From positions 48,360,001-48,424,000 of the forward strand of contig OZ336883.1 of assembly GCA_965287045.1 (NCBI GenBank): DNA of 64,000 nt. The letters run 5' to 3'. Shown piece by piece: positions 3,723-55,050 of the stretch. Both the position numbers and the translations under genes were made by a program. This DNA is from Carcharhinus amblyrhynchos. Lineage: Eukaryota. The notes under the pieces are model-generated. The model searched no databases and had not been told where the DNA came from. It saw nothing but the letters and a program-made list of their open reading frames with translations. Within the stretch, counting starts at the first letter, position 1; every line of letters begins with the position of its first letter.

Positions 3723-4049
3723 GAGAATCTCCCCCCATATTCCATGCACTTTATGTGAAGAAGAGTTCCCTAAGAAGAAAGGTCCTGAATTTGCCTTTCA
3801 TTAATTTAACACGTGTCTTTCTTTAGCAGAGAGCTAACATGAGAAGCTGCCCATTTTACCACGTGTATCACATACGGTTTTGAATTCTGAGATAAAAAGG
3901 ACACAAATCAGCCACATGTCGTCTGATTTTGCTATCCACTGAAAAATTGAGAAGTGTGTAAAATGGGCTGACCTAGTCCGTGGAGCTCCTGCTAATTAAA
4001 GTTAGCAAATGGTGTCTTAAGGTTTTAGGTTGCATTACATGAGAAGGCA

Positions 4050-12735: not shown

Positions 12736-15700
12736 GGGCCCAATTTTACCATTTGGAGTCTAAGAGCCAGATCCAGACGTAATACAGATCCAAGCCCGGA
12801 ATCCTCTTTGCAGCATGCCTATACGCTTTTTGCCAGCTGCAGTCCGATTCGTGCTGTAGGCGGGGCTGAGCACTGCTAGAATAATCGGAGCTGTGAACTG
12901 TGCATGCGCAATTAGAAAAACATTGGAAAAAGTGTGCCCACGTCAGATCCACTCCCGAACTGCAGAAAGTGAAGAAAGTAGCTCGAGAGCGACAAGCGGG
13001 AGCGAGTGTGTATCTCGGGGGGGGGGGCGGAGGGCAGATGGATCTCTATTGGGGGTGCAGGTGGGTCTCTGTTGGGGGGGGCAGGTGGATCTCTGGTGGG
13101 GGAGGCAGATGGATCTCTGGTGGTGGGGACGGGGCGGGGGGGGGTGTCCACTGCCACTCTGCAGGCGATTGGTGGGGGGTGGGGAGGAAGGGGGCAGGGT
13201 TGGCAGTCGGTCTGGGTAGTGGAGGGGGGGGGTGGTTTTTAGCTCTCAAGGATCTACTTCCATTCTTTCTTTTCTAGCCCAGAACTGTGTTTCACGGTGA
13301 GGGTTTTCTCTGGAGATCTGTCCTCAAGTGCAAGCTGGGTGAATCTGCCAACAGCATTTCAAATTTGCACCGAGGAATGTGTGTGGGAGCTTGCACTTGG
13401 ACTGAAAGGAGCAGTGCAAGCTCCCACACACATTCCTCTTCTGTGGTTGGTCCCTTGTTGCTCTCTCTCCCTGACAAGTCCACGCCCCCCTCCATTACCC
13501 AGACTGACCGCCACCCCTGCCCCCCCCTCTGCCCACCACCCGCCTGCAGAGTGGCAGCGGACCCCCTGCCCCCAACCAGAGAGCCATCTGCCCCCCCCCA
13601 ACCTCCCAGAGAATGGCTTTACACCCCCCACCCAACAATGATCTCACTCACTCCCCAGACAACAATCTCGCCTCACTCTCTGCCCCCCAAAGAATGGTCT
13701 GGCCTTACTCCCCCTCCCCTCCAAAGGAACATCTGACCCGCCTCCTCCCCCAGACAATGATCAGCCCTCCCCCCAAACCAGACAATGATCAGCCCCCCCT
13801 CCCACCAGACAACGATCAGCGCCCCCTCCCACCAGACAATGATCAGCCCTCCCCCCCACCAGACAATGATCAGCCCCCCCACCACCAGACAATGATCAGC
13901 CCCCCCCACCACCAGACAATGATCAGCCCCCCCCACCACCAGACAATGATCAGCCCCCCCCACCACCACCAGACAATGATCAGCCCCCCCCCCCACCACC
14001 AGACAATGATCAGCCCCCCCCCCACCACCAGACAATGATCAGCCCCCCCACCACCACCAGACAATGATCACCCCCCCACCACCAGACAATGATCAGCCCC
14101 CCCCCACCACCAGACAACGATCAGCCCCCCCCACCACCAGACAACGATCAGCCCCCCCACCACCAGACAATGATCAGCCCCTCCCACCAGACAATGATCA
14201 CCCCCCCCACCACCAGACAATGGTGATCAGCCCCCCCCCACCAGACAATGATCAGCACTCCCCCCACCACCAGACAATGATCAGCCCCCCCCCCACCACC
14301 AGACAATGATCAGCCCCCCCCCCCACCACCAGACAATGATCAGCCCCCCCCCCCACCACCAGACAATGATCAGCCCCCCCACCACCACCAGACAATGATC
14401 ACCCCCCCACCACCAGACAATGATCAGCCCCCCCCCACCACCAGACAATGATCAGCCCCCCCCACCACCAGACAATGATCACCCCCCCCACCACCAGACA
14501 ATGATCAGCCCCTCCCACCAGACAATGATCACCCCCCCCACCACCAGACAATGGTGATCAGCCCCCCCCCACCAGACAATGATCAGCACTCCCCCCACCA
14601 CCAGACAATGATCACCCCCCCCACCACCAGACAATGATCAGCCCCCCCCACCAGACAATGATCAGCCCCCCCCCCACCACCAGACAATGATCAGCCCCCC
14701 CCACCACCAGACAATGATCTGCCCCCCCACCACCAGACAATGATCAGCCCCCCCACCACCAGACAATGATCAGCCCCCCCACCACCAGACAATGATCAGC
14801 CCCCCCACCACCAGACAATGATCAGCCCCCCCTCCCACCAGACAATGATCACCCCCCCCACCACCAGACAATGGTGATCAGCCCCCCCCCACCAGACAAT
14901 GATCAGCACCCCCCCCACCACCAGACAATGATCACCCCCCCCACCACCAGACAATGATCAGCCCCCCCCACCAGACAATGATCAGCCCCCCCCCCACCAC
15001 CAGACAATGATCAGCCCCCCCCCCACCACCAGACAATGATCAGCCCCCCCCCACCACCAGACAATGATCTGCCCCCCCACCACCAGACAATGATCAGCCC
15101 CCCCACCACCAGACAATGATCAGCCCCCCCACCACCAGACAATGATCAGCCCTCCCCCCCACCAGACAATGATCAGCCCTCCCCCCCCACCACCAGACAA
15201 TGATCAGCCCCCCCCCCCCAACCAGACAATGATCAGCCCTCCCCCCCCACCGGACAATGATCAGCCCCCCCCACCACCAGACAATGATCAGCCCTCCCCA
15301 CCACCAGACAATGATCAGCCCTCCCCACCACCAGACAATGATCAGCCCCCCCCACCACCAGACAATGATCAGCCCCCCCACCAGACAATGATCAGCCCCC
15401 CCCACCACCAGACAATGATCAGCCCCCCCACCACCAGACAATGATCAGCCCCCCCCACCACCAGACAATGATCAGCCCCCCCCACCACCAGACAATGATC
15501 AGCCCCCCCCACCACCAGACAATGATCAGCCCCCCCCACCACCAGACAATGATCAGCCCCCCCCACCACCAGACAATGATCAGCCCCCCCACCACCAGAC
15601 AATGATCAGCCCCCCCACCAGACAATGATCAGCCCTCCCCACCACCAGACAATGATCAGCCCCCCCCCCACCACCAGACAATGATCAGCCCTCCCCCACC

Positions 15701-16771
15701 ACCAGACAATGATCAGCCCCCCCCACCACCAGACAATGATCAGCCCTCCCCCCCACCAGACAATGATCAGCCCCCCCCCCACCAGACAATGATCAGCCCC
15801 CCCACCACCAGACAATGATCAGCCCCCCCACCAGACAATGATCAGCCCTCCCCCCCACCACCACCAGACAATGATCAGCCCCCCACCAGACAATGATCAG
15901 CCCTCCCCACCACCAGACAATGATCAGCCCCCCCCCCACCACCAGACAATGATCAGCCCTCCCCCACCACCAGACAATGATCAGCCCCCCCCCACCAGAC
16001 AATGATCAGCCCTCCCCCCACCACCAGACAATGATCAGCCCTCCCCCCCCACCAGACAATGATCAGCCCCCCCCCACCAGACAATGATCAGCCCTCCCCC
16101 CACCACCAGACAATGATCAGCCCTCCCCCCCCACCACCAGACAATGATCAGCCCCCCCACTACCAGATAATGATCAGCCCTCCCCCCCACCACCAGACAA
16201 TGATCAGCACCCCCCCCACCACCAGACAATGATCAGCCCTCCCCCCCACCAGACAATGATCAGCCCTCCCCCCCACCACTAAACAATGATCAGCTCTCCC
16301 TCCCCCCCACCACCAGACAACGATATGACCTCACTCCCCTCCTCCCCCTCCAACTAGAGAATGACCTGACCTGCCTTCCCTCCTCCTCCCCCCACCCCCC
16401 CCAGCCCCCACCCAGAGGATGACCTGGGTCAGAGAGCCATTGCAGACTCTAAATCTGCTTTGGAGGCTCTCCTGCAAAATAAAAATCGGCTTTGGAATTT
16501 TATTTTGCAGGCCGCTTGCAGAGCAGATCCGGAACGGACCAGAAGAAGGTGAAGTGGGATTTGGTGGGAGAGTTGGGTGCGCGGTTCATTAAATCAATTT
16601 AAATGTATGCTAGTGCATTTAAATTGTCAGGCCGCCCATTTCAGGTGTGGACCAGATCCACATCCAAATCAGGTGTCAGTAAAACTGCAATCTGCTCAGA
16701 TTCAGGTGCAGATCGCATTAAAGGCCGAACGCCCAAATTTCAGGCACAAATTTTTGGTAAAATCGGACCCT
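12736..16771. mobile_element. Long TIR element (Harbinger-like MITE) containing an internal inverted duplication and a minisatellite
   Basis: TIRs gggcccaattttacca / tggtaaaatcggaccc; both end regions align with the inverted copy at 58230-59198. Confidence 0.7.
13750..16330. repeat. Minisatellite, unit (CCA)1-3GACAATGATCAG(C)n of about 22-30 bp, roughly 90-100 copies (estimate)
   Basis: Directly visible tandem array with the near-invariant core CCAGACAATGATCA and variable C-runs. Confidence 0.97.
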
Positions 16772-40453: not shown

Positions 40454-40992
40454 TCACCAGCTCCACTGTTGTCTCCGTACAACAGGATGCGTTAAATGAT
40501 GATAACTGGGGAAGACGCCAAATGGTCCTGTGTGCGGTACTTGCTGAAAGCCATGAAGTGTAAAAGCAGCGTAGGAATTGGGTTGGATAGTGTGGCCCGG
40601 CTTGTCCTGGATCTGCACCGAGGTAATGGAACAAGAATGACAGGGTTTGCCATCTCTGACCAGCACTGGCACTGCCACCCTGCGCACCAGCTGAGGCTGG
40701 TTCAGATCTATCTGCAGGCTGCCATCCACGCGAGCTCTCTTCATTTTATACCTGTGGTTCTGGAACCAGATCTTCACCTGAGTGGGGGTCAGGCTCAGAA
40801 GGTGAGCAAAGTGTTCGCGCTCAGGGGCGGACAGGTAACGCTGCTGTTGGAATCTTCTCTCCAACTCAAAGGTTTGTGCTTTAGAGAAGAGGACTCTTCG
40901 CTTTTTCTTCTTCTCGCTCTTGGTGCTGGCTGAGAGGCCTTTCCTTTGGACACAATCCGCCGAAGCCGTGTCTGTGCTACTCTCATCAGATG
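40454..40992 (-). CDS. NKX2-8: NK2 homeobox protein NKX2-8/nkx2.9, coding exon 2 (homeodomain + NK2-specific domain)
   Basis: Acceptor tttatttgcag|CA restores the frame (106-nt intron 40993-41098; total CDS 741 nt = 246 aa + stop). Encodes [20 protein letters not shown]...[11 protein letters not shown] with the NK2-diagnostic Tyr54, the NK2-[17 protein letters not shown] and a C-terminal QQWSW. NKX2-2/2-8 subfamily is clear; the paralogue call is by motif recognition. Confidence 0.92.
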
Positions 40993-41098
40993 CTGCAAAT
41001 AAATGTTTCCGGTTAGAATTGCTTGTGATATTTTATCGGGGGAAAAAAACAAGACAATAAACCAGCAGGGGAAACTAAATTCTAATTCGCATACTTAC

Positions 41099-41300
41099 AA
41101 ATCTTGTCAGAGCCAAGCCACCCTGAAAAGGATAATTTCGAATAGTCATGCTGCGAATTTTGCTCTGTTTCTTCTTTAATGACAGCAGATTGCATTGCTT
41201 TGCCACTTCCTCCATCCCATTGATTTCCATGGTCAATTTCCTGTTGATCTGGTAAATTTAAAATACTGCGCACGGTGAAGCTGGCCCTCGTTAACGACAT
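41099..41300 (-). CDS. NKX2-8: NK2 homeobox protein NKX2-8/nkx2.9, coding exon 1 (TN/eh1 domain)
   Basis: ATG at 41300 gives MSLTRASFTVRSILNLP, a tinman/eh1 motif; FTVRS is typical of NKX2-8 whereas NKX2-2 has FSVKD. The exon ends at a GTAAGT donor (plus-strand acttac 41093-41098), phase 1, 202 nt. Confidence 0.88.
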
Positions 41301-44765: not shown

Positions 44766-47700
44766 TTTGAACTAGTTGAAAGCTGAAGCTGTATTAAATT
44801 TAATAAGCAAGTGTTTCGGTTATTCACCCCTTGCAGTTCGATATTACAAAAAATGTTACTTCGCATTTAATTAAACAAATTTAACTTGAAGCTTATTACC
44901 ACTGGTGTTCGCAGCACGTACCTTCAAACTAGTACAGCTTATAATTGGAATTTACAATGGTCCTGTAGCAAAAAGAAAATCAACCAACATATGCACAGAA
45001 TACATTTGAAAATGTTTAAACTGTAAGTTGTATTTCTACTGATGCAAATGTGAGGTGTTGGTCACCATAATGATTAAAACACAAGAGCCACACAGTAACG
45101 GCAATGACTCCCAGAGAGGGGTTACTGAATGGGGGAAAAATCGCTGAAGTTGAAAGCAGCGAGGCGTTTATTGACATATGCAATTCACGTTTCGGTGAAG
45201 AAAGAAGCAAAACATGTCTGAGGAATTGTGAAAAGAGGGAATTTCAGAAACAAGTATCTGTGATTAAGGGAATTAAAGAATTCTTGCTCCTGGTTGAGCA
45301 AAAGGAATTGTTTAAGACAGAGGGGAATATTGTGACTGTTCTGAGAGAATAAATCATTTGCTGTGGAGAAAGGTTGGAAATATTGGTGCTGCGCTGTTGC
45401 CCTCTCTGTCGAAAGAAGCACAAATAATATGGGTAGGTATGAGGTGAAAATTCTCACTTGAGAATGAGATAGTCTGCAACCAGGTAAAATCATTTTGGAA
45501 CAGGTGGCTCACAGTGCATGTCATAGGCAGTTATTGTTTCTGATTTTGAAAATCAGTAAATATAGTGGGACTTAGAACTAATGCCAGAGGAGTTCGTTAT
45601 CAGGCTTTTCACAACATATAAATGTAAGCATGTCCCATGAAAACAAACCTGGGTTGAACACAAAGGAGTTTTTAAAAAGTGATTTAAAACCCCTTAGCAA
45701 AAATATAAAATTACTATCAGAAAAAATAGTGCAATTGTTTTGAGTATGTTTTGATTTTATTTACAAAAGGAAGTGGCTGGTGAACTTTTGTTTCCAGTCT
45801 CTGGGTGTGTGTGAATGTGTGACGTTTTACTGCTGCTTTCAGGATTATGAACCGTAAGTGCGATGTTACAATTTTCAGCAGAAGTTCCTACTGTTTCCTG
45901 GTTTATGGTGAGTAACTAAAACACTGACGGTTCGATCAAAATACCAAACTATAGAACTGGGTTTCTTCACCAATAACAACCAGTAATGCAAATCATGTGA
46001 ATACTTATTAGGTGAACAATTTGAGATTGGAATTCTTTTTAAAAATAGCAGTTTTAGAGTTCATAATGAATAAGGTGCATGAATACATGTTTGTTCAGTG
46101 TTCATTTCACTTTACGTTTGGAAAGCCAAATAAAGTGAAAATTAAAATAGCAATGTTAGGAGAAAGGAAAAGAAAATGAAGGGGTTGAAAATTGATTTTA
46201 AACATTTGAAAATTAAAGATGCATCGCGTGAATTTAATTTTGAACTGAAAAAAAACTACTGCTAGATCCTGTTTTTACATGAAAGAAAGAAACAAGTATC
46301 AGTTGTGGAAACTGCTATTGTCTCATTGAGCCACCCGCCTCACCGCAATCCCTACAGTTTTCACAAGGAAGATATAATTAATAGTTACTTCTAGTTGCCA
46401 AATTGCATTGCTGAATTACAGATAGATTTTAATTTTAAAGGACTTGGTTTAACACCATTTGAGCTCCTGGGAAGCTGCCGAGTTACAGCGCCCGCGCGTA
46501 AAAAAGTCATTGTACAAATAATTCCGCCCTTCTTTATTCAAAATATTCATGTTCGCCGTCTGATTTTTAAAGTTCCGAGAGTCTTACGCCACAAGCTCCT
46601 TCGCATAGTCCGTGATCTTATTAGGTGACAAGTTGGTCATATTCCAAGGCAGTCTGTGTTAAGTCTGTTAGGGTCAATAAAGCCTCTGATGATGATGTTG
46701 CTTCAGACAGCTCTGATATTTTTAAACCTAGCAGTGGGTGCAGGTATTAAGAATAAGCATTATTTATTCTGTAACCAGTAACCTAATGGCTTCTGTGGTC
46801 AAGACCTTCAGGGATATCTGAACGTGGCAATTTTAAGACTATAAAAATAATACAAAACATTACTGCTGACAACTTCAATTGCAAAATATTGACAAAGCAT
46901 GGGATCTGTATGAGGATATGCTTAAGGAACAATAGGGTATAAAAACTTCTGAACTTTCCATTCTTCTACGCAGACATGAGGACACGTCGGCTGCTGCCCT
47001 GAACCCACGCCTCAGTGCAAACTTAATCTAAAAACTGACAACACAATTAATAGTTTAATAAGTGGGAGGCAGGAGAAAAACTGCAAACCATGTTAATGAA
47101 AAACCGATAAAGGAACCTAGCGCTATAATTAGAAATTATTCCCCCTCTATTAATTTTTTGCTTCTGGATATTTCATTGTCTTAATTATGTAATAATGTAT
47201 GCAGAGTTTTATCTTACCGTGCTTAGAGAAATGGCGCACTTTCAATTGAATACAATGCAGGAAACTATCTCCGTGAACTCTGAGATAATGAAACACCACT
47301 TAAAATGAAAAGGCAGGCAGGTTATACTTGAGCAAGGACAATCCTGGTTTTAATAAAAGGAAAGTTGGAAACATTAGGACAGGTTCGGAATAATAACATT
47401 CATTCAGAAGAACAAAGGCTATCAAAAACAACTTATCTCCAAGGCAAATTGTGCATGGAAGGGTTTTACTATATGTAAATTCAATAAGGTATTAAATTCT
47501 AAAAAAAACCTAAATTTTACGTTAGATAAACAATTAAAAATCTGAAAATCATACGGGAATATAGAATGACATGAAGTATAAAGATTTGATTTGGTGAGTC
47601 ATACCAGCCCTACAAGTAAAGTGAAATTGTTTCATTACTGATTCCTGTGATCATGGCAATACCATTGCCACCACAATGAAAACTACTTAAAGTGGTATGT

Positions 47701-48229
47701 ATGTGCCTGCTGTGGATAGTATACAAAAGCAATTTGAGAACTCTATAAACATATTAGTGAGGAAACAATAAGGATTCTGGATTTCATGGAAAGTCATCTC
47801 TCAAGCAGGCTATCAAAATGTTCCCTATCCAGCAACCATCTCCAGCCTTTTAGACATTTTCATACCTTAGTTGCCCCAAGTTTGCCTGTGTTTCCAAACC
47901 CTCCATCACCCCAATATGTGTGATAGAGCATTCAGCATCTTTAGTCCTATCATTTGGGGAACCCTCCTGTATATTCTTCACATCTCTAATTGTCTTTCTC
48001 CCTTTAAAATTCCTCACAAGTACAGTTTTTGAGCACCACTTCCCTCTCAACCTCTCCTCTATCCATCCATCTGACTAATTCCATTTTTGAAGTGAATTTC
48101 TATTTTTAAACAATAAATAATTTCAGGTCAAACAGAAATTATTATTTTTAATGATACCAATGTGATGCTACAACCATATAAATTGACTTGACTGTGATTA
48201 CTAGCAGTTCTATGACACAAACATATGTC

Positions 48230-48590
48230 ATGATGTGGAGATGCCAGCGTTGGACTGGGGTAAACACAGTAAGAAGTCTGACAACACCAGGTTTAAGTCC
48301 AACCGATTTATTTGATAGTAAACTCACAAGCTTTCGAGGTTCCCCACTTGAATGGAGAGTTCTGGCCTCAAAAACCACACTTACTGTACTGTCTGGAGAC
48401 AATACACATCTCTTTAACCTGTGCTCAGTGCTCCTTCCACTCACATTGTTGGCCAATTTAAGACTTGAATAACAGGTTAGGTGTAAAGATTCGCATTCTA
48501 ATCAGTAATCTGTGTACTGTCTGTGGCCAGAACTCTCCATTCACCTGACGAAGAGGGGAATCTCGAAAGCTTGTGAGTTTACTACAAACA
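48230..48590. mobile_element. Penelope-like element remnant with inverted terminal segments
   Basis: 48316-48368 and 48525-48584 are inverted copies; atgatgtggagatgcc..acaacaccagg..agtccaac is typical of shark Penelope-type ends. Confidence 0.7.
48539..48578 (+). ncRNA. Minimal type I hammerhead ribozyme motif
   Basis: AUUCAC-CUGACGA-A-GAGG-GGAA-UCUC-GAAA-GC-UU/GUGAGU: core boxes intact, stem I 6 bp, stem II 4 bp with a GNRA loop, palindromic AAGCUU stem III. Confidence 0.7.
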
Positions 48591-49889
48591 TATGTACCAG
48601 GATCAGTCTGCACAGAACTTCTGTCATTGGCGTCACTGAAGTCCACATATGTATAGCAGGTGCCACCAGCACAATGGAGGCAACTTGGATGCCAGTAGTC
48701 ATATATCAGATACTCATTCATCCTTTTTCCGAGACAATGCTATTTATGATTCAATGCACCCAGTTATTAACTTGAAACCTAACTTAGAAAGTTTGCCATA
48801 CAGTGCCCAGGTTTCCAGCACTGAAATACCTCTAAGTCCCCCAAATTGTGGGCAGAACTTAAAGCATCCACTATATTGATAAGAAAGGTGCATTCGTGGT
48901 AAGAAGGTATGTCATTTTAAGTACAGATTATTTATCTAAGTTAGATCCAATGCATCTTGTTGGTTCTATTTCTGATCTTCACTCGCCACATGCTGAACAC
49001 CTACACCACAACATGATGCCAAAATGCACAAAATTCTCTCACTGGATTGATGACAATAAAGCTTGAGGTCTTATTTTGGGAATTGCTTACAGCTCATTAT
49101 ACTGACACAGAGATCATACACTGCACTGCCTGCCTGTCCAAAATTGGATACCTCCAAATTTCTAGATCTATATACCTTGCAATCTTAAAGATTGTTTTTG
49201 GCAGACATTAAGTGGTAGAAGAATTATAGCAACAACATGTCAAGATAGCACTTATAGAGCAACACACTGCATTAATTCAATGTTATTACAGTCATGTAAA
49301 TCTTTCTTTAGGCTTTTTCCTGCCTGTTTGATGTCCTGTAATTACAAATCTGAAAGAAGTAAACTTATTGTTAAGAACTGCCATCTGATGGACTTGTTGG
49401 CTGCAGAAAGAGTGTTCATAATGTGGTTCAACAGGCTGATGATCAGCTCAAGAATCCTTCCATTATTCCCCAAACAGAAAAAAATGTCTGTGTGAAGGTA
49501 TGCTTAAAAAAGGAATGTATTCTTGCTGAACACTTTGAATTGTTTTTTTAAAAGTTTCCCACAATTTATTTACCGCTACACAATTTTAGTTCATTCCCCT
49601 AATCAATCTTTGTCAGCTCTCCCTTCATTCTTATATAATTGGCTCTAAGTTTACATTTTTGTTTGTAATTGGAGTATGTGATTTTCAAACTCCATTTGGA
49701 ATTCAACTGATATTCTGATCTTTATTTCCCAATGGATCTTTTACAATGTCATTAATTAAACTTGTCTTATTACACAATATTAGATCTAAAATATCTTTAC
49801 CCTAATGGCTTTCACAACACATCACTCCAGGAAACTGTTATGAAAACATTCTACAAAACCCATGTTCCAGACCATCTTTACTAATTTGA

Positions 49890-54559: not shown

Positions 54560-55050
54560 TTATGCAATAAGAATCTCAGAAATAAATTAGTTTTGTTCCC
54601 AAAAGAAAGGTGCAGACTGGAGATATGATTGAGGTGTATATAAGGCTAAAGGGTCAGGCAATATGGCTTAAGTAGGTTATTGCATTTGGAGAATAAACAA
54701 ACAACCGGAGGGTACAAATTTAAAGAGCAAGGCTAGATGAAATATCAGTTTAATAGCTTGGTGGATACATGAAACAGAGTATTCCAGGCTTGGGGAACTG
54801 TCTGTGTGGTGTTTGTACATCCTCCCTGTGCCTGCGTGGGCTTCTTCTGGGTGCTCCGGTTTCCTCCAACAGTCCAAAGATGTGCAGGTTAGGTGGATCG
54901 GCCATGCTAAATTGCCCCTTGAGTTAGGGAGATGAGCAGGGTAAGTATGTGGGGTGGGGATAGGGTCTAGGTAAGATGCTGTGTTGGAGAGCTGGTGCAG
55001 ACGCGATTCACCGAATGGCCTGCTTCTGCACTGTAGGGATTCTATGAACT
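54560..55050 (+). mobile_element. CR1 3' fragment followed by a 5'-truncated HE1/V-SINE-like element (about 54790-55050)
   Basis: ggagatatgattgaggtgtat (CR1); gggtgctccggtttcctcc..ctgcactgtagggattctatga (SINE). Confidence 0.8.

Follow-up and report, generated by a model that had tools for sequence, protein, structure and literature searches.

The minimal hammerhead motif at positions 48539–48578 of the window, by which we mean the whole 64-kb stretch of DNA analysed here, is in our judgement very probably the inherited end-repeat of a 355-bp, 5′-truncated insertion of a Penelope-like element (PLE). At this locus it is likely to be an inert passenger, and the prediction is that it neither folds nor cuts. 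Judged by all the features that could be tested, the motif is a PLE minimal hammerhead ribozyme (min-HHR) residing in a Neptune-type stump.

Direct reading of the plus strand places the CUGACGA box at 48545–48551, stem II at 48553–48556 and 48561–48564, in which three pairs are Watson-Crick and a G-U pair closes the GGAA loop, the GAAA box at 48565–48568, and the CUU triplet at 48570–48572 (U16.1 at 48571 and H17 at 48572), while stem I, formed by 48539–48544 and 48573–48578, comprises 6 bp including one G-U. The core CUGANGA … GAAA … UH is complete, and the intact-looking minimal hammerhead of the original prediction is matched base for base, with the cut of this type-I motif predicted after 48572 on the combined basis of sequence reading, folding and descriptor search. 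An unpaired A at 48552, absent from the list of elements given in that prediction, lies between A9 and G10.1 and next to the pair G48553-C48564; in the available part of PMC4209133, an extra A at this place is a hallmark of PLE min-HHRs. The palindromic stem III that had been proposed is present, but it is not the 6-nt AAGCUU: because A14 and U17 are core bases, pairing is limited to the 4-nt palindrome at 48568–48571. Taken as an isolated 40-mer, the motif has stems I and II as its minimum free energy (MFE) fold, at −8.4 kcal/mol.

A general min-HHR descriptor matched the 64-kb window once, at 48539–48578. Chance matches are rare, given that any descriptor match occurred in 1 of 100 Markov-simulated 64-kb windows, and in a second simulated set none of the 100 windows held a match as good. 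The hammerhead search put forward as a check succeeded with this descriptor but not with the Rfam covariance models, which returned no hammerhead match at E ≤ 10 over 47500–49500. Elsewhere in the window, at 655–805 on the minus strand, lies the remnant of a different hammerhead-bearing repeat family, for which 3,165 candidates were found and a hammerhead-like layout was seen in 4 of the 7 homologues fetched. This relic, already described as dead near 780–800, is so indeed: its box at 791–785 (minus strand) is altered, with A at core position 5, and its GAAA is gone.

The PLE stump that contains the intact motif occupies 48229–48583 and consists of two head-to-head pLTR arms, with the hammerhead at the 3′ end. 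It is flanked by an exact 12-bp target-site duplication (TSD; 48217–48228 and 48584–48595, plus strand), the longest exact direct repeat around the element. The inverted arm (48229–48370, minus strand) was delimited by BLAST to family copies and by loose contig ends, 424–825 contigs per run and place breaking off before 48229 or 48230, and the plus-strand arm (48371–48583) by BLAST to family copies, in which the query split at 141/142, the border between the minus and plus arms. The minus arm begins a short way upstream of the hammerhead, continues across a tail of about 40 nt and ends on the ATG of the family open reading frame (ORF; 48231–48229), 97 nt past the cleavage position. The same coincidence of the long tail end with the ATG, 97 nt past the cut site, was observed in the tandem copy L173, where the ATG lies at 3748 and cleavage is expected after 3651. 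The plus arm starts about 30 nt beyond the family's ORF stop and ends 11 nt beyond the cleavage site, about 50 nt before the usual family end. Because the content of the two arms overlaps, they form an inverted repeat, pairing over 34 nt at 94% and a further 41 nt at 78%. As had been proposed, the inverted copy lacks the CUGANGA box; its dead hammerhead (48322–48353, minus strand) is shorter by an 8-nt deletion that removes CUGACGA. No coding sequence is left in this copy. The inverted 5′-truncated arm, the one-sided tail and the TSD are all present, and together they make up the PLE layout published in the accessible portion of PMC8557442.

Such a stump may have arisen when a full-length Neptune-type element supplied the RT/GIY-YIG protein, which would nick the target site, whereupon the pLTR end would be copied twice, from the tail/ATG end to give the minus arm and in the opposite orientation to give the plus arm. 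A fixed non-autonomous mini-element was ruled out by the arm junctions, which vary among copies. A non-LTR retrozyme was also ruled out, as the single intact motif has no other copy in the window or within 10 kb on either side. Retrozymes, as presented in the available text of bioRxiv 10.64898/2026.07.22.740005, do resemble this locus in that a short PLE-derived unit without coding sequence carries a type-I hammerhead, but they consist of at least two consecutive units in head-to-tail tandem, each with a complete hammerhead, in contrast to the single head-to-head stump found here with its copy-to-copy variation in arm junctions.

The family to which the stump belongs is large. A DNA search of the 2.92-Gb genome yielded 3,929 candidates, of which the best 40 were scored, and exact pattern searches gave 2,648 genome-wide matches to a tight 34-nt subfamily pattern and 35,843 to a looser intact-core pattern, with none for the reversed control; the latter figure corresponds to an expectation of 0.78 matches per 64 kb, or about one per 82 kb. 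These 35,843 intact-core matches come from a single PLE group that bears hammerheads and is divided into many stem II subfamilies. L009, L010, L012–L014, L017 and L018, spread over several small contigs, share both insertion and flanks, all with a broken core box, and are a segmentally amplified block, and the recurrence of four equally spaced head-to-head hammerhead pairs every 50–75 kb in C1:5337805–5521948 suggests a large tandem segmental repeat. For comparison, the consulted sections of PMC4209133 (Cervera and De la Pena 2014) give about 4,000 matches in coelacanth and about 9,000 in Xenopus, both lower than the present count, though by counting methods that differ from ours. The PLE min-HHRs of that study share with the present motif the core, the extra A and a palindromic helix III, and differ from it in genome, in family and in stem II, which is 4 bp here and 7–8 bp in Schistosoma. 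The searchable part of its supplements holds no entry for shark, Callorhinchus, Leucoraja or Scyliorhinus, and a literature search combining shark, Penelope and hammerhead ribozyme returned only an incidental mention, in the accessible text of a review (PMC6155905).

Relatives of the stump encode reverse transcriptase (RT; PF00078, E 4e-10) and GIY-YIG (PF01541, E 2.4e-5) domains directly upstream of the same pLTR. An ORF with RT plus GIY-YIG at its C terminus is linked to the pLTR in L031 and L173, while a Pfam search of a further relative, L032, gave no match. L173 has the canonical arrangement: two plus-strand hammerheads stand 3,014 nt apart around the RT-bearing ORF, accompanied by an inverted copy. 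Together with the pLTR arms and the 12-bp TSD, these relatives bear out the proposal of a Penelope-like remnant. The translations of L031 and L029 contain a CX4CX2C linker, and the GIY-YIG motif of the family has two Cys inside. According to the available part of PMC8557442 (Craig et al. 2021), a CX2-5CxxC linker is given for Neptune and Nematis and not for Penelope/Poseidon; these endonuclease-positive (EN+) PLEs share with our family the C-terminal GIY-YIG after RT, the two Cys within the GIY-YIG motif, and the combination of inverted 5′-truncated arm, one-sided 30–40-bp tail and TSD. Unlike full Neptune/Nematis elements, the window copy has no coding sequence and a plus arm about 50 nt short. 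These sequence features indicate a family of Neptune/Nematis type, the linker being common to both clades. A further comparison is offered by the Poseidon element PAc of Anolis carolinensis (Frangieh et al. 2024, PMC11167929), which, like the present family, has a pLTR hammerhead upstream of the tail, whose extent is set by two favoured 3′ ends, and in which cut RNA as the insertion substrate is likewise unsupported. PAc differs in that its ORF starts at stem II and its tail lies inside the ORF, whereas here the ATG stands 97 nt beyond the cut, at the long tail end; PAc, of the Poseidon clade, also lacks the linker, which in our family is CX4CX2C.

Based on comparison with other family members, the window copy is as intact as would be expected of a young copy under neutral decay. 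From 29 fetched copies we removed 6 segmental duplicates, leaving 23 independent ones, which as top BLAST hits are biased toward well-kept copies. The core was intact in 15 of the 23 by alignment (14 by regular expression). Over 11 core positions, 14 of 253 letters departed from the majority (5.5%), compared with 215 of 3312 (6.5%) in the upstream remainder of the pLTR (Fisher p=0.69), a test of low power in which subfamily differences are blended with decay. The window copy itself differs from the family majority at 7 of 184 positions, and with merely about 3–4% substitutions an intact core is accounted for. Evidence of another kind came from stem II, for which 15 distinct variants, of uncontrolled relatedness, were collected among the matches listed (30 of 35,843). 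Pair 2 was Watson-Crick in 13 of the 15 (A-U in 7, G-C in 6), a result equalled in 6 of 5000 shuffles; pair 3 was so in 14 (42 of 5000 shuffles as good), and pair 4 in 11, which is not significant (1883 of 5000). This pattern points to selection on the fold of stem II in source elements, and since the covariation lies between subfamilies, it would act there and not at this locus.

A special role for the locus was implied by its position beside a developmental gene. On the minus strand, at 40454–41300, lies an NK2-class homeobox gene, with a homeobox exon at 40454–41032 (Pfam Homeodomain, E 9e-20) whose best PDB matches, Vnd/NK-2 and NKX2-1, give the class, and with a putative ATG at 41300; it may plausibly be NKX2-8, with NKX2-2 as the alternative. 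The divergent position about 7 kb upstream holds, the start at 41300 being 7.2 kb from the motif. Two other features of the window were observed. Copies of a short interspersed repeat, a putative shark SINE, lie at about 405–610 and 54750–54950, and 14001–16000 is GC-rich and strongly skewed (GC 0.63, GC skew −0.65, AT skew 0.55), probably a simple or tandem repeat. One could imagine a domesticated ribozyme or hairpin by which a non-coding transcript, divergent from the NK2-class gene, is processed or regulated, as the element lies on the upstream side of that gene and is not confined to one organism. Contigs that join the unique flanks to the element occur in a further sample (X4) of the best-matching study and in organisms A (X5) and B (X6, X7); two related organisms therefore have this insertion, and their flanks have diverged from the window by 11 of 829 positions (1.3%) in A and 17 of 443 (3.8%) in B. 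Among the 15 joints listed, with 326 more beyond these, no contig joins across the element as an empty site would; in organisms C and D the junction was thinly covered.

We attach very little credence to domestication. Within 48558–48583, 26 nt that do not include the CUGACGA box, organism A has no changes, its six differences all lying downstream, and organism B at most one; this is compatible with constraint, yet it is also predicted by neutrality (P=0.71 and 0.74), and no excess conservation is evident. In addition, a C-to-U change at 48561 has turned the last stem II pair of the window copy into G-U, and its stem II is weaker than in 22 of the 23 family copies. With one intact motif per roughly 82 kb, a motif would lie within about 7 kb on the upstream side of some 8% of genes by chance, and proximity to the NK2-class gene needs no explanation. 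The significance that the original prediction attached to an intact ribozyme near this gene is not sustained, intact cores being the majority in the family. We found no functional link between the element and the gene.

The inert-passenger reading draws further support from modelling of the fold. The original prediction was right that PLE hammerheads need a dimer: in the available sections of PMC4209133, cleavage of single min-HHRs is undetectable and that of dimers is low, and dimer cleavage is attributed to Lunse et al. in the accessible part of a review (PMC6765202). In a full tandem element, stem III could be built by base pairing between the 4-nt palindromes of two hammerheads that lie on the same strand some 3 kb from each other, and this pairing would let the tandem precursor RNA be cut; selection on such source elements would leave a covarying stem II. 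The stump has no such partner nearby, as the descriptor found no same-strand hammerhead in the window or within 10 kb on either side, and read-through RNA would produce the antisense arm first, locking the motif in a hairpin of about 75 bp. Using ViennaRNA, an equilibrium model without protein chaperones, we found that forcing the hammerhead stems in the fold of the whole element costs 43.5 kcal/mol. The stem probabilities were 0.000 for transcripts starting at 48229, 48300 and 48330. With starts from 48345 to 48520 they varied between 0.005 and 0.56 according to the position chosen. In these models, transcripts that start upstream of about 48340 are predicted to have the motif sequestered by the antisense arm, and pairing with the inverted arm, named in the original prediction as grounds for refutation, occurs in silico for such starts.

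A transcript initiated inside the plus arm would be the sole open route to activity in this model, and it would still require a partner in trans. One may picture a latent ribozyme that, transcribed from a residual pLTR promoter within the plus arm and so free of the antisense arm, cleaves weakly by pairing in trans with the RNA of another family copy, or aided by the element's protein, and serves no host function. Its core, stems and NUH triplet are intact, stems I and II form in the isolated 40-mer, compatible partners number in the tens of thousands genome-wide, promoters within PLE pLTRs are described in the available part of the review PMC6765202, and protein-assisted cleavage is known for an anole PLE (PMC11167929). 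We nevertheless consider this unlikely, keeping in mind that the duplex of the 4-bp palindrome is worth merely −2.5 kcal/mol, that the stem probabilities did not exceed 0.15 for the four arm-internal starts 48371, 48420, 48480 and 48520, that this copy shows no promoter evidence, and that truncation points are not in excess at the cut site, as detailed below. A search for RNA runs containing the stretch listed none, which has no bearing either way on expression. In the anole Poseidon element, the hammerhead needed the element's protein to cut and was dispensable for insertion in vitro, and RNA-seq ends were absent at its cut site (PMC11167929). A more specific proposal, in which this copy, present in at least three related organisms, is transcribed inside the plus arm, dimerises in trans with the RNA of about 36,000 sisters and cuts, is in our estimation extremely improbable. 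If it were true, a developmental locus would make a divergent non-coding RNA that responds to genome-wide Penelope expression, and the locus, if cleaved in trans, would be a rare domesticated PLE ribozyme beside a vertebrate developmental gene.

The arms of L003 and L019 begin exactly after NUH, and on this lead we tested the truncations near the cut site. Were cleavage followed by insertion of the 3′ piece, arms would begin at the base after NUH. Truncated-arm matches numbered 822 genome-wide, and the first 100 listed represented 97 distinct contexts, from which one copy with an indel was dropped (another resembles one by eye), leaving 96 to be scored. Exactly at +1 there were 4 starts, where uniform truncation would give about 3.4. 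Starts at −3 to +1 reached 44, against about 27 expected, an increase driven by a peak of 22 at −2, of which 19 adjoin an inverted arm. This −2 peak is best explained by microhomology, though a cleavage trace is possible. A second peak, of 15 starts at +4, mostly beside inverted arms and at microhomology, is unrelated to cleavage. Across the whole genome, starts at +1, −1 and +3 numbered 20, 43 and 46, compared with 20.2, 49.6 and 39.2 expected (p=0.36; p=0.84 after removal of 13 family-variant rows, counted by eye). As arm starts are not in excess at the cut site, we reject a fossil trace of in vivo cleavage. We also observed that very short arm junctions (L070–L099, L108–L172) cluster at −2 and +4, beside inverted arms and with short microhomologies, and that many of them hold short extra copies of arm sequence, which suggests repeated template jumps.

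The locus itself is of little consequence, since equivalent stumps number in the tens of thousands. The family, in turn, bears on the role of PLE hammerheads, which is called unclear in the available text of PMC8557442. Selection appears to have acted on the fold in source elements, yet the 5′ ends of truncated arms do not pile up at the cut site; this combination fits insertion from uncut RNA, for which the anole element provides a precedent in vitro (PMC11167929).
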